Part shown: in pieces, positions 2,430-64,000 of the stretch
How the letters are laid out: the number at the start of each line of letters is the position of its first letter
Numbering within the stretch: the first letter of the stretch is position 1
NCBI GenBank assembly: GCA_002255585.1
Contig: NCBJ01000004.1
Span: 6,415-70,414, forward strand
DNA length: 64,000 bases
DNA from: Parcubacteria group bacterium 21-54-25
Lineage (GTDB): Bacteria; Patescibacteriota; Minisyncoccia; Phycocordibacterales; Phycocordibacteraceae
Reading direction: 5' to 3'
Notes under the pieces: generated by a model
What the model was told of the DNA's origin: nothing
Database searches by the model: none
The model's input: the letters and a program-made list of their open reading frames with translations, nothing else
Position numbers and translations under genes: made by a program

Positions 2430-3641
2430 TTAAAATGCGTTTGCGAGATTGTAAATTGGCACGAGCACCGAGGCAAGCAAAACGCCGACCCCAACACCCA
2501 AGAGCACAATCATCATTGGCTCAATGAGGTCCACGAGCGTGTCTACTGCTGTCATAACTTCTCGTGAGTAGAACTTTGAAAGCGTCGTGAGAATGCTGCC
2601 GAGCTCGCCGGTTTCCTCGCCCACCTTAATCATGGCAGTCATGATGCCTGGTATGACTTCTGGGTGTGCGGCAAGCGCCGCTGAAATAGTCGAGCCGCCG
2701 CGCACCGCATCGCGCGTCTGGTGGAGAACGTCCTGGTACACGGCGTTGTCGATAACATTTGCGGTAATGTCGATGACGTCCACGACCGGCACGCCGGAGA
2801 GCAGCATGGTTGATAAGTTGTCCGCGATGCGCGACAAATAGAGCTTTTGATACAGGTCACCCAGGTAGGGCAGCGAGATCTTGAAATGATCATACGCATA
2901 ACGCCCGTGGCTCGTCCGCAGCGAACGCCAGCCGAGAATGCCGCCACCAATAAGCACGATGAGTGCAAGAAGGCCGTAGTGAATGAGGAAGTTCGAGAGG
3001 TTGAGGATGATTTGTGTGTACACTGGAATTGGCTGGCCAGAGTCCACAAGAATGGCGCTCACGCGCGGAATGACGAATGTGAGCATGAGTATCATAACCG
3101 CAAAGAACGTAAAAATAACGAACGCAGGATATATGAGTGCGTTTTGCGCCTTGCTCACGAGCGCATAGGTGCGGTCGAGATAATCGGCGAGATAATTGAA
3201 GGTGTCGGAAAGCTTGCCGGATTCCTCACCGGCGCGCACCATGTTTACGTAAAACGTGCTAAATACCTTCGGATGTCGCGCGAGTGCCTGCGAAATGGCA
3301 CTCCCCCCCTGCAAATCGTCTGCAACCTTGGTCAAAATGTCGGCAAGAAGTTTGTTGTCCATCTCGCTTGCGAGGAGTCGGAATACGCGAAGCGCTGAAA
3401 CCTGCGCGGTAAAAAGTGTCGAGATCTGCCGCGAGAGAATAACGACCTCCTTATTGGACACGTGCTGAAAAATAGCGATGTCGGCAGTAAGAAGCGACCC
3501 CTTCTTCTTCGTAGGCTCAATCGAAGAAATGATGAGTTCGCGGCGCTGCAGCGCGGAAACGGCCACGTCCATCGAGAGCGCGTCTATGGTGCCTTCGCGT
3601 TCGTGGCCGTCTTTATCGAGTGCGTGATAGGTAAAAAGCAT
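2430..3641 (-). CDS. pilC: Type IV pilus assembly platform protein PilC (GspF family)
   Basis: 403 aa polytopic membrane protein with duplicated T2SS-F-type domains. Sits between the pilin and pilT. Confidence 0.85.
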   Translation of the reverse strand: MLFTYHALDKDGHEREGTIDALSMDVAVSALQRRELIISSIEPTKKKGSLLTADIAIFQHVSNKEVVILSRQISTLFTAQVSALRVFRLLASEMDNKLLADILTKVADDLQGGSAISQALARHPKVFSTFYVNMVRAGEESGKLSDTFNYLADYLDRTYALVSKAQNALIYPAFVIFTFFAVMILMLTFVIPRVSAILVDSGQPIPVYTQIILNLSNFLIHYGLLALIVLIGGGILGWRSLRTSHGRYAYDHFKISLPYLGDLYQKLYLSRIADNLSTMLLSGVPVVDVIDITANVIDNAVYQDVLHQTRDAVRGGSTISAALAAHPEVIPGIMTAMIKVGEETGELGSILTTLSKFYSREVMTAVDTLVDLIEPMMIVLLGVGVGVLLASVLVPIYNLANAF

Positions 3642-3658: not shown

Positions 3659-4723
3659 CTATAGGTACCGCTCAAAGGTTTTTGGATCGAAGGCGTGCTC
3701 GTATGCGTGCTCAACGGTAACTTCGCCGCGGCGCACGAGTTCGGCCAGCGTGCGATCCATGTCAATCATCCCGTCCTGTGAGGAGGTTTGAATAATCGTG
3801 GGTATTTCGCTCGTGCGGCCCTCGCGAATGAGGTTTGCTACCGCGCTGTTGTTGAGCAGGAGTTCATAGGCCGGTATGAGACCGCCGGCGATGCGCGGCA
3901 CCAATCGCTGAGAAAAAATACCTGCGAGTGAACCGGCAAGCTGCATACCCACCTGCTTTTGTTGGCTTGCAGGAAACATGTCTATGATACGGTCGATGGT
4001 CTGCGCCGCATTGTTGGTGTGTAGGGTTGAAAGAACAAGATGGCCAGTTTCCGCAGCCGTGACTGCCGAAGCGACGGTTTCGGGATCGCGCATTTCACCT
4101 ACCATAATCACGTTTACGTCTTCTCGAAATGCTGCTTGAAGTGCCGAGTGAAAATTTGGTGCATCCACATACACTTCACGTTGGTGGATGAGCGATTTCC
4201 CCTGCTCAAAAAGATACTCGATCGGATCTTCGATAGTCACAATGTGATCGGTGCGTGTTTTGTTTATGCGGTCGATAATAGCGGCAAGTGTGGTGGACTT
4301 CCCTTGTCCCACCGGCCCCACCACCAAAAAGAAGCCCTGTGCGTGCTGGGTAAAAACATCGAGTACGGGCGGCAGACTGAGATCGGCAAAGGTGCGAATT
4401 TCGCGCGGAATAAGGCGCAGTGCGATGGCTACCGCCCCCTGCACGACGTAGCCATTGATACGAAAACGACCCTGATCTTTGTGCGCGTAGGAAAAGTCGA
4501 CTGATTGGTTCTTCTCAAACGTCTCCCAGCGTGACTCGGGCAAAATGCTCTTGAGCATTGTCTCTGTGTCGCTTGATGAAAGTACGGGCTGCTGCGTCAG
4601 CGGGATAAGCGAGCCGGTCATGCGAATAATCGGGCGCTGCCCGGCGGTAATATGCAAGTCTGAACCGCCTTCTGCGATAACAATGTCGAGTAAATCAGTA
4701 ATGTGTGATGTGGTGGGGCTCAT
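3659..4723 (-). CDS. pilT: Twitching motility ATPase PilT
   Basis: 354 aa. Walker A (VVGPVGQGKSTTLAAIID) and a PilT-type secretion ATPase core. ATG at 4723 verified. Confidence 0.85.
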   Translation of the reverse strand: MSPTTSHITDLLDIVIAEGGSDLHITAGQRPIIRMTGSLIPLTQQPVLSSSDTETMLKSILPESRWETFEKNQSVDFSYAHKDQGRFRINGYVVQGAVAIALRLIPREIRTFADLSLPPVLDVFTQHAQGFFLVVGPVGQGKSTTLAAIIDRINKTRTDHIVTIEDPIEYLFEQGKSLIHQREVYVDAPNFHSALQAAFREDVNVIMVGEMRDPETVASAVTAAETGHLVLSTLHTNNAAQTIDRIIDMFPASQQKQVGMQLAGSLAGIFSQRLVPRIAGGLIPAYELLLNNSAVANLIREGRTSEIPTIIQTSSQDGMIDMDRTLAELVRRGEVTVEHAYEHAFDPKTFERYL

Positions 4724-22351: not shown

Positions 22352-22383
22352 CACCGATCGATTGGAGTATATGGTCGTTTTTG

Positions 22384-22457
22384 TGGGCGTACCAGGACTC
22401 GAACCTGGAACCGCTGAGGTATAAGCTCAGTGCTCTAACCAATTGAGCTATACGCCC
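22384..22457 (-). tRNA. tRNA-Ile (anticodon UAU), 74 nt, CCA not encoded
   Basis: Revcomp is GGGCGTA-TA-GCTC-AATTGGTTA-GAGC-A-CTGAG-CTTATAC-CTCAG-CGGTT-CCAGG-TTCGAGT-CCTGG-TACGCCC-A. Anticodon loop CUUAUAC gives anticodon UAU. Confidence 0.8.
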
Positions 22458-22481
22458 GTATCCTATCTCGCTCCGCTCGTG

Positions 22482-22510
22482 GTAAGCTCAGTGCTCTAAC
22501 CAATTGAGCT
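22482..22510 (-). pseudogene. 29-nt exact duplicate of the 5' portion (positions about 8-35) of tRNA-Ile(UAU), embedded in a hairpin
   Basis: Minus-strand TAGCTCAATTGGTTAGAGCACTGAGCTTA is identical to the adjacent tRNA. It is flanked by complementary GCTCGT/ACGAGC arms (22471-22520). No T-arm or acceptor 3' strand follows, so it is not a functional tRNA. Confidence 0.6.
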
Positions 22511-22547
22511 ACGAGCGAACATACCGCTTAACGCGGATGTCCCAATA

Positions 22548-39866: not shown

Positions 39867-40574
39867 CTACTGTTGTAACTTCGGCATAACGAGCGAAAGA
39901 TGCTCTAAAATCATGCGCACGGGTGCTGCGCGATCGTATAGATACCCGCGCAATATCTCAATATCGGAGAGCACCCGCAAAAGCACGCGACGCTTTTGCG
40001 GGTGCTGCTCGTGCTGAAATGCTTGATGTACAGCGCGTTCAATGTCATCAACAATGCGTATCGCCGCATCACGGCCACGTCGACGCGCGTCTTCGTCTTT
40101 GCCGCCCACCAGCTTCTTGATGAGCGTCGTGCGCTTTTCTTGCGTCGCATGAAGAAATACCTGCGCCTCTTCTGAAATTGGTGCGTCTACCGAGGACACG
40201 AGCGCGGCGTGTGACGACGGGAGCGATATCACGCGCGAACGTACGGTCGGCAAGAGCATAGAAAACTGTGGCACGACCAGTATAATGACGGTACCCGCAG
40301 ATGGCTCTTCAAGAAGTTTGAGAAGCGCGTTTTGCGCTTCGTGGTAGATGCGATCAAGCACAATGACGAGCGCCTTCGTCTCTCCCGCGACCGGCGCAAG
40401 TGTGGCAAAGGCAGAAAGCGCGCGCGCGTCCTCAACTGAAAAAAGCCCATACTGCCGCACCACCACGTCGGGGTTTGCGCGGGACGACAGTCCGTACGTT
40501 TCGGCAAGAAAAGCGAGCGCGTGGCGCGCGCCTGCTTCCCCCGCCCTGGCAACGACATATGCGTGATGCGCCAT
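39867..40574 (-). CDS. holB: DNA polymerase III delta-prime (HolB)-like clamp-loader subunit, degenerate
   Basis: 235 aa. LLKLLEEPSAGTVIILVVPQFSMLLPTVRSRV matches the clamp-loader sensor-1/SRC region. No Walker A is evident. Confidence 0.55.
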   Translation of the reverse strand: MAHHAYVVARAGEAGARHALAFLAETYGLSSRANPDVVVRQYGLFSVEDARALSAFATLAPVAGETKALVIVLDRIYHEAQNALLKLLEEPSAGTVIILVVPQFSMLLPTVRSRVISLPSSHAALVSSVDAPISEEAQVFLHATQEKRTTLIKKLVGGKDEDARRRGRDAAIRIVDDIERAVHQAFQHEQHPQKRRVLLRVLSDIEILRGYLYDRAAPVRMILEHLSLVMPKLQQ

Positions 40575-40610
40575 ACTAGCAGCATACTACGCTTTTGCTA
40601 CAATGCCGGC

Positions 40611-41210
40611 ATGAATCATCTGGCGACAGAGCAGCCGCTCAAAAATGCATATTTCGCAATGCGCCATGGTACGAGTGTGGCAAATGAGGAGGGCGTCATT
40701 GTAAGCGATCCGACCAAAGGTGTCGCTGGCTATGGTCTTTCCGAGAAAGGCCGCAAAGAAGTGCGTGCGGCTGCGCAACGTGCAAAAGAAACAGGGTTGC
40801 TCGATGCACATACGATTGTCATCTCGTCCGACTTTACTCGCGCGCGCGAGACTGCCGAAATGCTTGTCGATACACTTGATCTCGACATGGTTACAACGAC
40901 ACCGAAGCTGCGAGAACGTTTTTTCGGTGCGTGGGATGGTACGCATAACGACAACTACCAGAAGGTGTGGGCTGACGATGCGCACAATGCTACCCATACC
41001 GCCAACGGCGTCGAGAGCGTCGCAGCAGTGCTCGACCGCGCAACGAAACTAATCGCGGAACTTGAGCAGAATTACGCTGGGAAACCTATCGTACTCGTAT
41101 CGCATGGCGATACGCTCCAAATACTTCAGACCGCGTTTGCAGATGTGTCCCCTGAAACACACCGTTCACTGACACCCCTCCATACCGCCGAGATTCGCAA
41201 ACTGAATTGA
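40611..41210 (+). CDS. Histidine phosphatase family protein (phosphoglycerate mutase-like)
   Basis: 199 aa from the ATG at 40611. Catalytic RHG motif (YFAMRHGTSVANE) plus downstream His (LVSHGDTL). Confidence 0.75.
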   Translation: MNHLATEQPLKNAYFAMRHGTSVANEEGVIVSDPTKGVAGYGLSEKGRKEVRAAAQRAKETGLLDAHTIVISSDFTRARETAEMLVDTLDLDMVTTTPKLRERFFGAWDGTHNDNYQKVWADDAHNATHTANGVESVAAVLDRATKLIAELEQNYAGKPIVLVSHGDTLQILQTAFADVSPETHRSLTPLHTAEIRKLN

Positions 41211-41220
41211 CGCAGAAACA

Positions 41221-41257
41221 AAAACCATGCGATTGCTTAGAGCAATCGCATGGTTTT
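41221..41257 (+). terminator. Rho-independent terminator (perfect 13-bp stem) after the phosphatase gene, bidirectional
   Basis: aaaaaccatgcgattgc-ttag-agcaatcgcatggtttttg. An A-run precedes and a T-run follows the perfect stem. Confidence 0.8.
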
Positions 41258-41263
41258 TGTTTA

Positions 41264-41465
41264 CTGGGCGGGCCGCCGAGAATCGAACTCGGGTTATACC
41301 CCTTCGAGCCTCGGCAGTCCCCCGGACTACCGGTCGAGCCGAAAGTCGGGCCGCCGAGAATCGAACTCGGGTTATACGCACCCGAAGCGTACGTAATACC
41401 ACTATACCACGGCCCGACTTTCGGCTCGACCCCAAGGCGCACGTACTACCACTATACCACGGCCC
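41264..41465 (-). tRNA. Split tRNA-Pro(UGG)-like gene with a 128-nt insertion at position 37/38 (possibly intron-containing or a pseudogene)
   Basis: The 5' part (41430..41465: TGGGCCG-TG-GTA-TAGTGGTAG-TAC-G-TGCGC-CTTGGG) and the 3' part (41264..41301: G-GGGTA-TAAC-CCGAG-TTCGATT-CTCGG-CGGCCCG-C-CCA) together make one full-length tRNA. Anticodon UGG, CCA encoded. It has a U1-G72 wobble and one G-G mismatch in the anticodon stem. The two parts are separated by 41302..41429, which contains a complete tRNA-Pro(CGG). Confidence 0.45.
41345..41415 (-). tRNA. tRNA-Pro (anticodon CGG), 71 nt, CCA not encoded; nested inside the split tRNA-Pro(UGG)-like gene
   Basis: CGGGCCG-TG-GTA-TAGTGGTAT-TAC-G-TACGC-TTCGGGT-GCGTA-TAAC-CCGAG-TTCGATT-CTCGG-CGGCCCG-A. 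All stems are Watson-Crick, with C1-G72, G37 and the T-loop TTCGATT. It is flanked by a perfect 15-nt inverted repeat (GGTCGAGCCGAAAGT / ACTTTCGGCTCGACC) that extends the acceptor helix. Confidence 0.8.
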
Positions 41466-41592
41466 AAATGCGAGTAGCGTACCATACCGAGCTGCTCGTG
41501 TATGGTGCGCCCGCCAACGAGGAGACGTATCCCACAGGGTGTGGATACAGCCCGGTTTTGGAACACACACAGCGGCAGCAGTGCGTATCCCG

Positions 41593-41666
41593 GTGGGTAG
41601 TACAGGATTCGAACCTGTGACCTCACGCGTGTGAAGCGTGCGCTCTAACCAGCTGAGCTAACCACC
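41593..41666 (-). tRNA. tRNA-Val (anticodon CAC), 74 nt, CCA not encoded
   Basis: GGGTGGT-TA-GCTC-AGCTGGTTA-GAGC-G-CACGC-TTCACAC-GCGTG-AGGTC-ACAGG-TTCGAAT-CCTGT-ACTACCC-A. Confidence 0.85.
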
Positions 41667-41712
41667 CGAATGACCGGAGCATAGCAGAAAAAACACCAAA
41701 ACAAAATGTGCT

Positions 41713-41786
41713 GTGGACCTTACCGGATTCGAACCGGTGACCTCCGCATTGCAAATGCGGCGCTCTAACCAACTGAGCTAAAGGCC
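41713..41786 (-). tRNA. tRNA-Ala (anticodon UGC), 74 nt, CCA not encoded
   Basis: GGGCCTT-TA-GCTC-AGTTGGTTA-GAGC-G-CCGCA-TTTGCAA-TGCGG-AGGTC-ACCGG-TTCGAAT-CCGGT-AAGGTCC-A. The G3-U70 Ala identity pair is present. Confidence 0.85.
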
Positions 41787-41822
41787 CGCAAGAAGGAGCA
41801 TACCCGGTTTTAGCTTTTCTGG

Positions 41823-62111: not shown

Positions 62112-62521
62112 GGGGGTGACCGGCTTTGACGGTCTGTACCTTGAGAATGCGCGACGCGGTGCACGCTCACTTACCACCTAAAACTAGTGAGCACCTAAAC
62201 GTGCCAAGAAATCTCTTGCACGCGCAGTGTCGCCATACTTCGGTATGAACGACTTTGCGTTCGCGGCAGTGACGGCTCGAGCGTAAGCTCGCCTCGCTCT
62301 CGCGACGTCTCCCTACCTTGCGTTTGCAGGGGGTAGTCGAGGCGGAATGTACTGCATACTCGACGTGCGCGCGCCCACGCGTACTGTCTAAATTTTGGGA
62401 TCCGACAGGAGTGATTTTGTTTCAGTTCCTCGCACCCTGTCCTAGCTTCAACTGAAACTACGCGTCGTAGAAGCACCTCATGGTCCGGATTCGGACGGGA
62501 GTTCGATTCTCCCCACCTCCA
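62112..62521 (+). ncRNA. ssrA: tmRNA (ssrA)
   Basis: 5' end GGGGGUGACCGGCUUUGACGG. 3' end GGACGGGAGUUCGAUUCUCCCCACCUCCA, i.e. T-arm plus acceptor with the G3-U70 Ala identity pair. CCA not encoded. A candidate tag reading frame ends at TAA 62284-62286 (...NDFAFAAVTARA); the resume codon is uncertain. Confidence 0.8.
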
Positions 62522-64000
62522 CATCTTGTGAATTCTTGGTAGCAAACTGCTCAAAAAGGCCGATAAATGGCGACTTTAGCGCGGTTTCAAATCCAAACTT
62601 TGGATGGAATGCCAATCGTTCCGCAAAGAGTAGTTTTAGAACTACTCTTTTTGCGTTTATGTCTCGCTTTTCCCAGATAACTAGCGGGTTTTCTAGGAAG
62701 TTGAGTACGACCTCTAGTGCGGTTTCAAAACTCACGGATGAGACGCCCAGCCCTTTCATCCGCTCTTGCAAGAGATCGCCTTCGCTTCGGTATTTCGCGA
62801 TCTGTTCCTCGTATGCGCTGATCACCCTTTCGTCTACCGCCTTCACGACACGTCCAGCGAGAACATCCACCTGACGCCGCGTTTCCTTCAGCTTCGTCTC
62901 CAAGGATCTTTGTTGCTGCTCAAGAGAACCCACCTTGTGTTCCCACAATTCCAGAACTACGGCTTTAGCGAGACGAATGGCCCCGGGCTTCGGGTAGATG
63001 GACTGGAGGAGTTTTACAAATTCTGCATCGACAAAGTCTCCGCTCACGCTTTTATTGAATCGAACGCAGGATGGGCTCTTGCAGCGATAGAAACGGTACA
63101 TCTTTGATCTGCCTCTCGACCAGCTTGCGGTGAGTGCGCCTTGGCAGAATGGGCACAGGAGGAATCCGCGAAGCGCGAAGTCGAGCGAATCACTTTTCCG
63201 CACAGCCACCCTGCACTTCCCATCCAGTTTTCCCTGCACTTTTTGGAATGTCTCGAGAGAAATGATCGCTTCATGTTGCCCTTTTCTTCTCGAAACTTCC
63301 CACTCCTCACGCTCGACGTATCCCGCGTACACAACTCGTCGAAGAAGACGTCTAACGCCTTCTTGGTAAATCGGTCCGTTGCTGTAGTCTGTAGCACGCA
63401 AGAATTTAACCACGTCCGCCTGCGACAAAAACTTGCCAGAGGCAAATCCTTCAAACACTTCTCTAATGAGGCTGGCCTGCGGTTCATGGGGTTGAAGTAT
63501 CTTCCCATGCGCCGGATCCTTGACCTGCTTGTATCCGGGCGGCGGATAGTGCGGCCAGTACCCTTTCTCTAGGCGAGCTTTCATTTTCTGAATTACCTGG
63601 CGTCTGTTGTTCTTGCGATGGTATTGATTTTGCAACGCCACCATTCCCTCGAACATCTCTCCTTCCGGCGAATCGTCGAAGTTGAAATTCAAACAGAGTG
63701 GTTTAATTCCTCTAGTCTCGAAGGCCTGTCTTAATTTGAAATGAAAAATAACGTCCCTAGCAAACCGGCTCAAATCGTCAAAAATAACCACGTAGTTTCT
63801 ATGGGGATGATTATCTGCATGAGCAAGTAGCCTTTGCATAGCAGGCCTCAGCATAAAATCGCCGCCGCCGGTGAAACTATCTCTAAAGACTTCCTCTACC
63901 TCGTAGCCGTTGGATCTAGCGAACTCTCGGCATCGGTGTTCTTGGCTGTCGAGTCCGTGCCCTTTGACCTGACCCCCAAATTTCAGACCACTCTCTAGAC
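62478..64000 (-). CDS. Large serine recombinase (resolvase/integrase), N-terminus beyond window end
   Basis: The reading frame stays open to position 64000. Upstream in-frame translation gives ...GQVKGHGLDSQEHRCREFARSNGYEVEEVFRDSFTGGGDFMLRPAMQRLL...VVIFDDLSRFARD (resolvase catalytic domain). It is followed by the recombinase domain, a zinc ribbon (CPFCQG...CKSPSC) and a coiled-coil. Its 3' end overlaps the tmRNA 3' end by 44 nt. Confidence 0.8.
   Translation of the reverse strand, partial: LESGLKFGGQVKGHGLDSQEHRCREFARSNGYEVEEVFRDSFTGGGDFMLRPAMQRLLAHADNHPHRNYVVIFDDLSRFARDVIFHFKLRQAFETRGIKPLCLNFNFDDSPEGEMFEGMVALQNQYHRKNNRRQVIQKMKARLEKGYWPHYPPPGYKQVKDPAHGKILQPHEPQASLIREVFEGFASGKFLSQADVVKFLRATDYSNGPIYQEGVRRLLRRVVYAGYVEREEWEVSRRKGQHEAIISLETFQKVQGKLDGKCRVAVRKSDSLDFALRGFLLCPFCQGALTASWSRGRSKMYRFYRCKSPSCVRFNKSVSGDFVDAEFVKLLQSIYPKPGAIRLAKAVVLELWEHKVGSLEQQQRSLETKLKETRRQVDVLAGRVVKAVDERVISAYEEQIAKYRSEGDLLQERMKGLGVSSVSFETALEVVLNFLENPLVIWEKRDINAKRVVLKLLFAERLAFHPKFGFETALKSPFIGLFEQFATKNSQDVEVGRIELPSESGP

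Follow-up and report, generated by a model that had tools for sequence, protein, structure and literature searches.

Fragments of tRNA genes left by integrating elements form a described class (PMC9897764), and the disruption of a tRNA gene by a mobile element has been reported in an archaeon (PMC3293823). Patescibacteria are rich in tRNA introns, those described being self-splicing group I introns residing in other tRNAs (PMC13011429); tRNA-Pro is not mentioned in the main text of that study. Here we analyze a 64,000-nucleotide stretch of contig NCBJ01000004.1 from Parcubacteria group bacterium 21-54-25 (hereafter the window), in which an intact tRNA-Pro(CGG) gene lies within a second, split tRNA-Pro gene at positions 41265-41466 of the minus strand. 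Another known kind of small insertion comprises miniature inverted-repeat transposable elements (MITEs) and small palindromic elements, e.g., the Rickettsia palindromic elements and the Correia elements; these are small, noncoding sequences with terminal inverted repeats that insert into genes, including RNA genes. No description of nested tRNA genes in bacteria was found in the literature searched.

In our opinion, the arrangement probably (roughly 0.6) originated through a small insertion, bringing a working tRNA of its own, that split a resident tRNA-Pro gene, the outer pieces being now in decay. The direction of the event in this genome is one that we infer. An earlier note, made from the letters of this DNA, had weighed an intron carrying a second tRNA against a tRNA-bearing insertion flanked by inverted repeats. 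The former reading found no structural support in our analysis. The latter is the better supported of the two, with the identity of the outer gene, the inverted repeat and the hairpin reinterpreted as described below.

Structure of the nested locus

The anatomy proposed earlier is real in its outline. From 41466 to 41265, the locus consists of an outer 5′ piece, a 15-nt arm, tRNA-Pro(CGG), the complementary arm, an 8-bp hairpin, a GAA hairpin and an outer 3′ piece (Table 1). The outer 5′ piece reads UGGGCCG UG GUAU AGUGGUA GUAC G UGCGC CUUGGGG. The 3′ halves of the two genes (41269-41299 and 41347-41377) form an exact direct repeat, identical at 31/31 positions, and the 5′ halves (41381-41415 and 41431-41465) are 89% identical. 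The two arms join the 7-bp acceptor stem of the inner gene in a perfect 22-nt inverted repeat (41332-41353 with 41410-41431), in agreement with the continuous helix of about 22 bp described before. The 15-nt arm itself is also as described, except that it is not wholly separate from the outer loop: only four G follow CCTT, and the arm shares the last two of them. On the 5′ side this repeat starts at the junction, while on the 3′ side 33 more inserted bases follow it. The region as a whole is predicted to fold much more stably than shuffled sequences (z = -5.8).

The split does lie in the anticodon loop. The homology to tRNA resumes at position 41, however, and not at position 38 as previously thought, so that positions 38-40 have been replaced: the final G of the junction segment GGCTCGAAGGGG stands for position 41, and the Gs before it fill 39-40. 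No unambiguous target-site duplication is seen at the insert, the only candidate being GG/GG. The 8-bp hairpin reported after the second arm is present, is unique in the window (chance expectation, 0 matches) and, like the arm, has no further copy there; a multicopy repeat of the REP or MITE kind was therefore rejected.

Loci retrieved for comparison bear L numbers. One of them, L001, represents a second, independent assembly of the same organism (GCA_035427565.1), in which the tRNA cluster is identical base for base; this effectively rules out an assembly artefact.

The inner gene scores 60.4 bits against Rfam RF00005 (gathering threshold, 29) and is called Pro(CGG) by ARAGORN. Its cloverleaf is intact, although not every stem pair is Watson-Crick as had been stated, since the fourth pair of the D-stem is U.U. 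The sequence is identical to tRNA-Pro(CGG) of L017, L018 and L091, and recurs at L099, L111 and L113. To judge from these features, the inner tRNA-Pro(CGG) is the functional gene of the locus. It is also the only gene that ARAGORN and Rfam detect there; the outer genes were never called by ARAGORN in its intron-aware mode. When the outer halves are joined in silico, they do form a cloverleaf, which ARAGORN calls tRNA-Pro(UGG) at default settings. This joined fold shows U1+G72 and a discriminator C followed by CCA, and its anticodon stem contains a single G.G mismatch and a single G+U pair. Positions 38-40 of its anticodon stem and loop come from GGG of the insert, and it is with the G.G and G+U that ARAGORN accepts the joined halves. 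The inner 3′ half is in fact a better pairing partner for the outer 5′ half (UGCGC/GCGUA) than the outer 3′ piece is.

Identity of the outer gene

Several lines of evidence indicate that the outer gene, previously described as tRNA-Pro(UGG)-like, is a CGG-type paralogue and not the tRNA-Pro(UGG) of the cell. With the anticodon loop left aside, 58/62 positions of its body agree with the CGG gene of the genome, as compared with 46-49/62 for the UGG and GGG genes of relatives; for the 5′ piece, the corresponding values are 27/30 against the inner CGG gene and 21-23/30 against UGG or GGG genes. The tRNA-Pro(UGG) of Kaiserbacteria has a characteristic body with U8-A9, the D-loop ACCGGUA and the variable loop UAGA, and the outer gene is not of this type. 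Its apparent UGG is most simply explained as a C34-to-U change in a CGG-type gene that is no longer selected.

The C1-G72 pair and A73 are ProRS identity elements in bacteria. Both are present in 91 of the 92 tRNA-Pro genes called in the retrieved loci of the Candidate Phyla Radiation (CPR), whereas the outer gene has U1.G72 and C73; the U1-G72 pair and the G-G mismatch pointed out earlier are genuine. The CCA of the outer gene is indeed encoded. It is, however, a poor sign of function, as 24 of the 92 CPR tRNA-Pro genes encode CCA, and here it follows a mutated discriminator. We infer that the outer gene is probably not a functional tRNA-Pro.

CCA accounts for 215 of the 857 proline codons (25%) in the open reading frames (ORFs) of the window, and therefore a UGG reader must exist. 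In all of the Kaiserbacteria loci that extend far enough (L134, L136, L137, L138, L140, L141, L143, L144, L145 and L146), tRNA-Pro(UGG) has yraN on one side and a trypsin-like protease gene on the other. The 64-kb window contains no yraN/UGG locus. By analogy with these relatives, the true tRNA-Pro(UGG) of this genome would lie at the yraN locus on another contig.

A covarying leader/trailer stalk

The next line of evidence concerns the inverted repeat. A gene was regarded as carrying a stalk if its acceptor helix was extended by at least 8 contiguous pairs, beginning with U(-1)-A73. Stalks were found in 6/62 tRNA-Pro(CGG) and 1/4 tRNA-Pro(UGG) genes (7/66 together); the roughly 90 Ala, Val, Leu and Pro(GGG) genes of these loci have none. 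CUCUGU/ACAGAG is frequent as the proximal part of the stalk, and the sequence of the distal part varies among genomes. In an ungapped alignment of the seven genes, 12 of the 15 stalk pairs have changed on both sides, i.e., are double compensatory. In the same alignment 89.5% of stalk cells are paired, versus about 40% when the partner is slid; it should be noted that these genes were picked for having a stalk, which partly builds in the pairing percentage but does not account for the variety of pair types. In L017 and L091, which are among the seven, the stalk is found on un-nested genes without an outer shell, and it therefore belongs to the tRNA unit.

Judged by this covariation, the inverted repeat behaves as a leader/trailer stalk rather than as a conserved transposon terminus, and it is evidently under selection. 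Together with the acceptor stem, the stalk measures 15-22 bp in the seven tRNA-Pro genes and would make a processing helix of the size of RNase III substrates. To our knowledge, leader/trailer stalks are not a regular feature of bacterial tRNA genes.

A conserved hairpin module at the junction

The two hairpins that follow the stalk form a 35-nt module. Three other genomes have this module too, in tRNA-Pro genes that are disrupted at an identical junction (37/41). The copies were found by a genome scan for a D-arm with an NGG anticodon and by a metagenome scan for the hairpin. Thus, the module is known from the window, L121 (Moraniibacteriota), and L129 and L131 (Kaiserbacteria-like and mutually syntenic). 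In all four the layout is NGG-GG, hairpin 1, CC, GGYAGUCC-GGG-GGACURCC, GW, GGCYC(C)GAAGGGG, then tRNA position 41 onward, and the same three-hairpin fold is predicted. The lower stem of hairpin 2 shows compensatory changes from G-C to A-U and from U.G to C-G.

Hairpin 1 is plain in L121 and L131 (10-bp or 18-bp). Its counterpart in the window and in L129 is a 15-bp stalk with a whole tRNA at its tip, the arms being equally long in both but unrelated in sequence. In L131 and L121, an intact tRNA-Pro is found in the T loop of the shell, in L131 on a 13-bp stalk, and is followed by the shell end AAUU CCCGG CAUCCCG A. The module is therefore downstream of the working tRNA in the window and L129, and upstream of it in L121 and L131.

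Exact-pattern scans found the module only these four times. A profile search with nhmmer over about 1 Mb of CPR loci yielded no diverged copy, and the module was not found in viral contigs. The module had no relevant Rfam match at E<=10 in the window, L129 or L121, including no match to a self-cleaving ribozyme. Two metagenome matches (L127 and L130) were rejected as chance occurrences in coding DNA. The hairpin core AGTCCGGGGGACT also occurs at L128 5242-5275 and L132 12702-12735, apparently as the reverse complement of the long variable arm in an unrelated tRNA-like gene on the opposite strand; this is probably a coincidence.

Nested tRNA genes in other CPR genomes

When the 250 nt around called tRNAs were screened, orphan tRNA pieces turned up next to 15/82 tRNA-Pro genes and 13/112 other tRNAs; some of the latter may be intron-containing genes missed by the caller. 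Nested arrangements were seen at L048, L114, L088, L121, L129 and L131 (Pro), L064 (Ala) and L073 (Ser), with the inserts in the D loop, the anticodon loop or the T loop. The inner gene is surrounded by an inverted repeat of 8-21 nt, perfect or nearly so, in the anticodon-loop cases, the D-loop cases and the T-loop case of L131; none was identified around the inner gene of L121. Wherever the anticodon loop of the shell can be read (L064, L073, L121 and L114), the inner and outer genes are of the same isoacceptor. Shells decay around intact inner genes, namely in the 5′ half (L129 and L088) or at the 3′ end (L121).

In the insert of L064, the inverted repeat is perfect over 16 nt (CAAATGAAAGTAGTTG / CAACTACTTTCATTTG), and GTA stands at each junction, perhaps as a target duplication of 3 bp. 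The insert of L073 has a 20-nt perfect inverted repeat (TCCCGCACCATTTTTCATTT / AAATGAAAAATGGTGCGGGA), one arm of which has CTTG-YCCCGCACCAT in common with an arm of the tRNA-Pro insert of L048. The 10-mer CCCGCACCAT/ATGGTGCGGG of these arms might point to a common element family, but its sole additional match, in L139, is coding DNA, and the 10-mer occurs as single chance copies in six other loci.

The polarity of the event can be read in some relatives. L070, a sister of L048, has an uninterrupted resident Pro(CGG) gene (acceptor CGGGCUG) directly after tRNA-Ala(CGC). In L048 the resident gene is split; the insert stands in place of six of its bases (GCTTCG) and carries a Pro(CGG) gene with another acceptor stem (CGGGGCG). 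Analogously, the shell of L121 (CGGAGUG...) matches the resident gene of Moranbacteria, while the inner gene (CGGGGCA...) does not. L143 and L144, when compared with L145, encode the same YraN protein and have identical flanks on contigs of different samples, and they differ by the presence of a 227-nt insertion after tRNA-Pro(UGG) (L143 1969-2330 and L144; L145 1509-1600). It is bordered by 19-nt direct repeats (CGATTCCC[A/G]GCAGCCCGAC) that correspond to the segment of tRNA-Pro(UGG) from the T loop to the end; a shorter, related insert is present in L134. The retrieved flanks of the 227-nt insertion contain no recombinase gene. These comparisons indicate that small DNA insertions at tRNA-Pro genes are, as far as can be read from related contigs, ongoing in the clade, and that, where polarity is readable, the shell is old and the inner tRNA came with the insert.

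In other loci there is only a 3′ orphan, 60-130 nt downstream of the tRNA (L008, L110, L119 and L126 of Moranbacteria; also L018 and L134). In L119 (1530-1700, plus strand), two tandem units of about 80 nt, each with two GC-rich hairpins, come after tRNA-Pro(CGG). Such units, one or two per locus, also occur in L126, L110 and L008; each terminates in a copy of the last 17 nt of the tRNA (GATTCCCGGCACTCCGA), and a conserved, functionally uncharacterized small ORF is located downstream of them.

An arrangement like that of L121 and L131 is also seen for alanine. On the minus strand of L020, about 50-180 nt downstream of tRNA-Pro(CGG), there is a 5′ half of tRNA-Ala(CGC) (positions 1-31; pattern match at 2348-2375), an insert of about 75 nt, ten tRNA bases and a complete tRNA-Ala(CGC).

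Evaluation of the alternatives

If an insertion split the outer gene, the following course of events may be envisaged. An insert of about 130 nt, comprising the stalked tRNA and the two-hairpin module, would have entered, at the DNA level, the anticodon loop of a second, CGG-type tRNA-Pro gene and replaced positions 38-40. Since the insert supplies the same kind of tRNA, the disruption would be neutral and the shell free to decay, its drift including C1 to U, C34 to U, A73 to C and changes in the anticodon stem. The inner tRNA would be transcribed together with tRNA-Ala and tRNA-Val, in a transcript ending at the 41216-41262 hairpin. The stalk would be opened by a double-strand-specific nuclease such as RNase III, followed by RNase P and 3′ trimming; CCA, not being encoded in the inner gene, would be added post-transcriptionally. 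Candidate routes of insertion are site-specific recombination at loop-centered palindromes, as performed by tyrosine integrases in tRNA genes, recombination of taken-up DNA with the tRNA halves serving as homology arms, and an RNA-mediated route.

A number of observations weigh against this explanation. In relatives, the position after tRNA-Val is taken by the CGG gene, whose sequence the inner gene shares; the resident status of the outer gene, and hence the polarity in the window, is therefore unproven. The outer 3′ piece is 31/31 identical to the inner gene, whereas the 5′ piece has 3/30 body changes in addition to its loop changes, and this uneven divergence requires gene conversion, or a younger 3′ copy and separate ages. 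The 15-bp arms are perfect beside the drifting 5′ piece. The module is 34/35 identical between L129 and L131, while their functional tRNA-Pro(UGG) genes are only about 70% identical. Such conservation points to function or recent mobility, which decay of the shell does not explain; together with the perfect arms, it argues that part of the insert is functional. Another tRNA-Pro(UGG) gene is deduced from relatives, and the 25% of CCA codons require a UGG reader. Finally, the window yielded neither a mobilizing enzyme nor a target-site duplication nor a further copy of the insert.

An alternative at the RNA level is a functional intron. In this case, the outer gene would be a real tRNA-Pro(UGG), from which the 130-nt sequence is cut out (e.g., through release of the inner tRNA by RNase P/Z, or by another endonuclease) before the ends are ligated, and a single locus would give two tRNAs. 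We consider this quite unlikely. It would agree with the position of the insert in the anticodon loop next to position 37, the cloverleaf of the joined halves, the common CCA codons, the unrelated sequences of the 15-bp hairpin-1 arms in the window and L129, and the junction geometry and three-hairpin fold shared by four genomes, with a module more conserved than the neighboring tRNAs. The wealth of tRNA introns in Patescibacteria points the same way, though those are group I (PMC13011429). The fold of the insert, however, comprises three plain hairpins, and neither of the structures that the earlier note suggested looking for, BHB-like (bulge-helix-bulge) or group-I-like, was found. No bulge-helix-bulge (two 3-nt bulges and a 4-bp helix) is seen at the junctions in predicted folds or by inspection. 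The sole alternative pairing, of CCUU...UCGAGCC with GGCUCGAAGG, has one 5-nt bulge in a single strand and is not conserved in the other three genomes: this helix is perfect in L121 (CUUCGGGG/CCCCGAAG) and uncompensated in the window, L129 and L131. The pairing of GGCTCGA with TCGAGCC proposed before is thus possible, without being a conserved helix. A group I intron was rejected, as the insert has about 130 nt (71 of them tRNA), compared with about 200 nt or more for the P3-P9 core, and does not match RF00028; moreover, the 5′ piece ends in GGGG, without the U that group I introns need at the 5′ exon end. Group II features are likewise lacking, and no intron or ribozyme family in Rfam matches at E<=10. 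In any spliced product, the replacement of 38-40 would leave G30.G40, in all four module genomes. Three of the four module shells could not give a tRNA, since the 5′ half is decayed in L129, the 3′ end is deleted in L121, and L131 has a second insert in the T loop. The U1.G72 and C73 of the outer gene break an otherwise invariant tRNA-Pro pattern, and its body is CGG-type. Ten ORFs between 37.7 and 47.3 kb, scanned against Pfam, include no splicing endonuclease (EndA) or ligase, and we know of no protein-dependent tRNA splicing pathway in bacteria. A related proposal regards the three hairpins of the module (GG-hairpin 1-CC, GGYAGUCC-GGG-GGACURCC, GGCYCGAAGGGG) as a novel bacterial tRNA intervening sequence removed from RNA, with hairpin 1 colonized here by a complete tRNA; it appears distinctly improbable. 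If true, one precursor would give tRNA-Pro(CGG) as well as another tRNA-Pro made by splicing. This would be a new RNA-processing pathway and the first case in Bacteria of tRNA splicing that depends on protein or on RNase P/Z.

Alternatively, the outer pieces could be scars of separate site-specific integrations, i.e., att remnants left at different times by integrase-type elements that have since been deleted, the stalk being the tRNA's own leader/trailer pairing and the nesting coincidental. This is rather unlikely, even though tRNA fragments from integrating elements are a recognized class (PMC9897764, PMC3293823) and direct repeats of tRNA 3′ parts do bound small inserts in L119 (two tandem units), L126, L110, L008, L018, L134 and L143/L144. 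The insertion points also agree, being anticodon and T loops: tyrosine integrases reportedly prefer crossover sites in these two loops of tRNA genes, a preference said to have been described by Williams in 2002. Yet the start of the 5′ arm coincides exactly with the break in the outer loop, and the perfect complement of this arm comes right after the inner gene, which marks the insert as one unit; the same unit structure, with perfect inverted repeats of 16-21 nt, recurs in L048, L064 and L073. Integrase scars normally give 3′ orphans only, and there is no integrase gene nearby. Another view is that shell and module together are a functional non-coding RNA (a tRNA-Pro mimic) or a protein-bound DNA site, kept beside a tRNA-Pro gene and homogenized with it by gene conversion. 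The very strong conservation of the module's primary sequence across distant genomes would fit, as would the resemblance of the outer pieces to the local tRNA-Pro, which is closer than that of the shells of other genomes. The loss of different shell parts in different genomes, the mere four occurrences in exact-pattern scans and the variable position of the module relative to the working tRNA make this view hard to believe. Finally, a chimera assembled from repeated tRNA halves is extremely improbable: the genome is metagenome-assembled and repeats of 31-35 nt are present, but these are shorter than reads and k-mers, the second assembly agrees, and analogous nested loci come from unrelated studies and genomes.

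If the nested locus is indeed a decaying tRNA-Pro gene around an insertion, then CPR genomes hold small insertions that break a tRNA gene and yet bring their own copy of it, a means by which selfish or accidental DNA could maintain itself inside an essential gene when the genome is minimal. It is possible, at somewhat less than even odds, that there is a class of such self-compensating cassettes, which target the loops of tRNA genes and carry a replacement of the same tRNA. No insertions carrying a copy of their own target tRNA were described in the literature searched. Such loci are also of importance for annotation, as they can lead to isoacceptors being overcounted or overlooked (here, through a false UGG), and tRNA counts serve to judge the completeness of metagenome-assembled genomes. 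The covarying stalk of 15-22 bp, which some of the tRNA-Pro genes possess, suggests that their transcripts mature in an unusual way, and the 35-nt two-hairpin module is better conserved than the tRNAs that surround it.

Genomic context and other RNA features

The flanking genes have bacterial housekeeping functions and encode UvrA, UvrC, Ddl, pterin-4a-carbinolamine dehydratase, a His phosphatase and the DNA polymerase III delta′ subunit; no recombinase, integrase or transposase gene is among the flanking ORFs. The pterin dehydratase matches a protein of Parcubacteria group bacterium 21-54-25 with 100% identity and has its next relatives in Candidatus Kaiserbacteria, and the host is a Kaiserbacteria-like CPR/Patescibacteria bacterium. 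A search for synteny through this gene gave L002-L007 and L133, in which the tRNA cluster is not retained beside it. A phage origin was also rejected, the matches to phage records being generic tRNA similarity only.

The upstream tRNA-Ala(UGC) and tRNA-Val(CAC) genes presumably share a transcription unit with the Pro locus; the order tRNA-Val(CAC), then Pro, is conserved in L012, L017, L099, L111, L113 and L114. Downstream, the perfect hairpin at the end of the cluster is a probable bidirectional terminator that closes both the tRNA operon and the convergent His-phosphatase gene (His_Phos_1 ORF, 40521-41210, plus strand); it was not listed by a simple terminator scan. In Paceibacteria, some tRNA genes, Val(CAC)/Pro(CGG) and Pro(GGG)/Pro(CGG), abut with zero spacer or one shared base, the discriminator of one directly preceding position 1 of the next (L099 3691-3836, L111 2926-3069, L012 2333-2478, L113 1215-1362 and L064 7311-7457).

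Table 1. Features of the nested tRNA-Pro locus and of comparable loci
Locus	Feature	Positions	Strand	Remarks
Window	Outer 5′ piece, 37 nt	41430..41466	-	Acceptor 5′ strand (U1), D-arm, anticodon-stem 5′ strand, loop CUUGGGG; CGG-type body, UGG "anticodon"
Window	Stalk 5′ arm, 15 nt, GGTCGAGCCGAAAGT / GGUCGAGCCGAAAGU	41417..41431	-	Overlaps last two G of outer loop; base of module hairpin 1
Window	Inner tRNA-Pro(CGG), 71 nt	41346..41416	-	A73 at 41346; CCA not encoded; ARAGORN and Rfam
Window	Stalk 3′ arm, ACTTTCGGCTCGACC / ACUUUCGGCUCGACC	41332..41346	-	Exact complement of 5′ arm; first base is discriminator A73
Window	Module hairpin 2, 8 bp, GGTAGTCC-GGG-GGACTGCC (GGUAGUCC-GGG-GGACUGCC)	41313..41331	-	Near-identical copies in L121, L129, L131
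Window	Linker GA and hairpin 3/junction segment, GGCTCGAAGGGG / GGCUCGAAGGGG	41299..41312	-	Same junction geometry in four genomes
Window	Outer 3′ piece	41265..41299	-	Positions 41-72, then discriminator C (41268) and CCA (41265-41267)
Window	22-bp perfect hairpin, A/T-rich flanks	41216..41262	.	Inverted repeat
Window	tRNA-Ala(UGC) and tRNA-Val(CAC), upstream	41592..41787	-	ARAGORN/Rfam calls
L048 (Falkowbacteria)	Pro(CGG) in Pro(CGG)			21-nt perfect inverted repeat
L114, L088 (Paceibacterota)	Pro(CGG)			On 8-bp and 11-bp arms
L064	tRNA-Ala(UGC) split in D loop after GGTA	4220-4490	+	Identical intact tRNA-Ala(UGC) inside
L073	tRNA-Ser split in anticodon loop (ACAGCTTG / AAAAACTGCAG)	2747-3012	+	Intact tRNA-Ser(UGA), different sequence, inside

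Elsewhere in the window, a truncated tRNA-Ile-like piece (22458-22530, minus strand; tRNA-like part about 22470-22515) lies about 22 nt upstream of an intact tRNA-Ile(UAU) at 22383-22457 (minus strand; ARAGORN and Rfam). The piece reads CGCTCGT AGCTCAATTGGTTAGAGCA CTGAG CTTA CC ACGAGCG. Its 5′ half is identical at 29/29 positions to the D-arm and anticodon stem of the neighbor, and its own acceptor strand is joined to its complement. It is thus the second case in the window of a broken copy beside an intact one. The anticodon UAU is uncommon in bacteria, in which AUA is usually read by a lysidine-modified CAU; ATA makes up 19% of Ile codons in the window ORFs. A tmRNA gene is present at 62112-62524 (plus strand; Rfam, 77 bits). 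The tag predicted by ARAGORN, VPRNLLHAQCRHTSV*, is unlike the usual degradation tag ending in ...LAA, and either the tag call may be misplaced or the tag may be unusual.

Comparison with known systems

Among described systems, tRNA fragments from integrating elements (att-site duplications and cis-mobilizable remnants lacking an integrase) resemble the locus in several respects: partial tRNA copies lie beside an intact tRNA, with breaks in the anticodon or T loop; relatives show a filled/empty polymorphism at the population level (L143/L144 versus L145); and, as in the fragments at integrase att sites, there is an exact direct repeat of the 3′ part of the tRNA, here of 31 nt. Unlike such fragments, the locus has both 5′ and 3′ orphans enclosing a complete tRNA, and its insert of only about 130 nt consists of an inverted-repeat stalk, not an island, without an integrase. 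Function would here be restored by a whole cargo tRNA and not by an element-borne 3′ end.

The disrupted tRNA genes of archaea share with the locus an interruption beside position 37 and related inserts in different tRNA genes, and the split tRNAs of Nanoarchaeum also have long, GC-rich complementary segments flanking the break. The locus differs from all of these (genes with bulge-helix-bulge introns, including transposed introns, and split and permuted genes) in being bacterial, in lacking a bulge-helix-bulge and in having a whole tRNA inside; its outer tRNA, moreover, is without identity elements. The group I tRNA introns of Patescibacteria (PMC13011429) come from the same phylum, likewise occupy the anticodon loop and are likewise missed by standard tRNA finders, but the insert described here is too short and lacks a catalytic core, a U at the 5′ splice site and an Rfam match.

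Analogously to MITEs, the insert is small and noncoding and has inverted repeats, and that of L048 has terminal repeats of 18-21 nt. In contrast to MITEs, it bears a functional tRNA, is single-copy in the window and has no clear target-site duplication, and its repeat covaries among relatives rather than keeping its sequence. A further parallel is offered by the RNase III processing stalks of the rRNA type, in which, as here, a leader/trailer helix (about 22 bp in the window, with predicted cleavage) surrounds a stable RNA.

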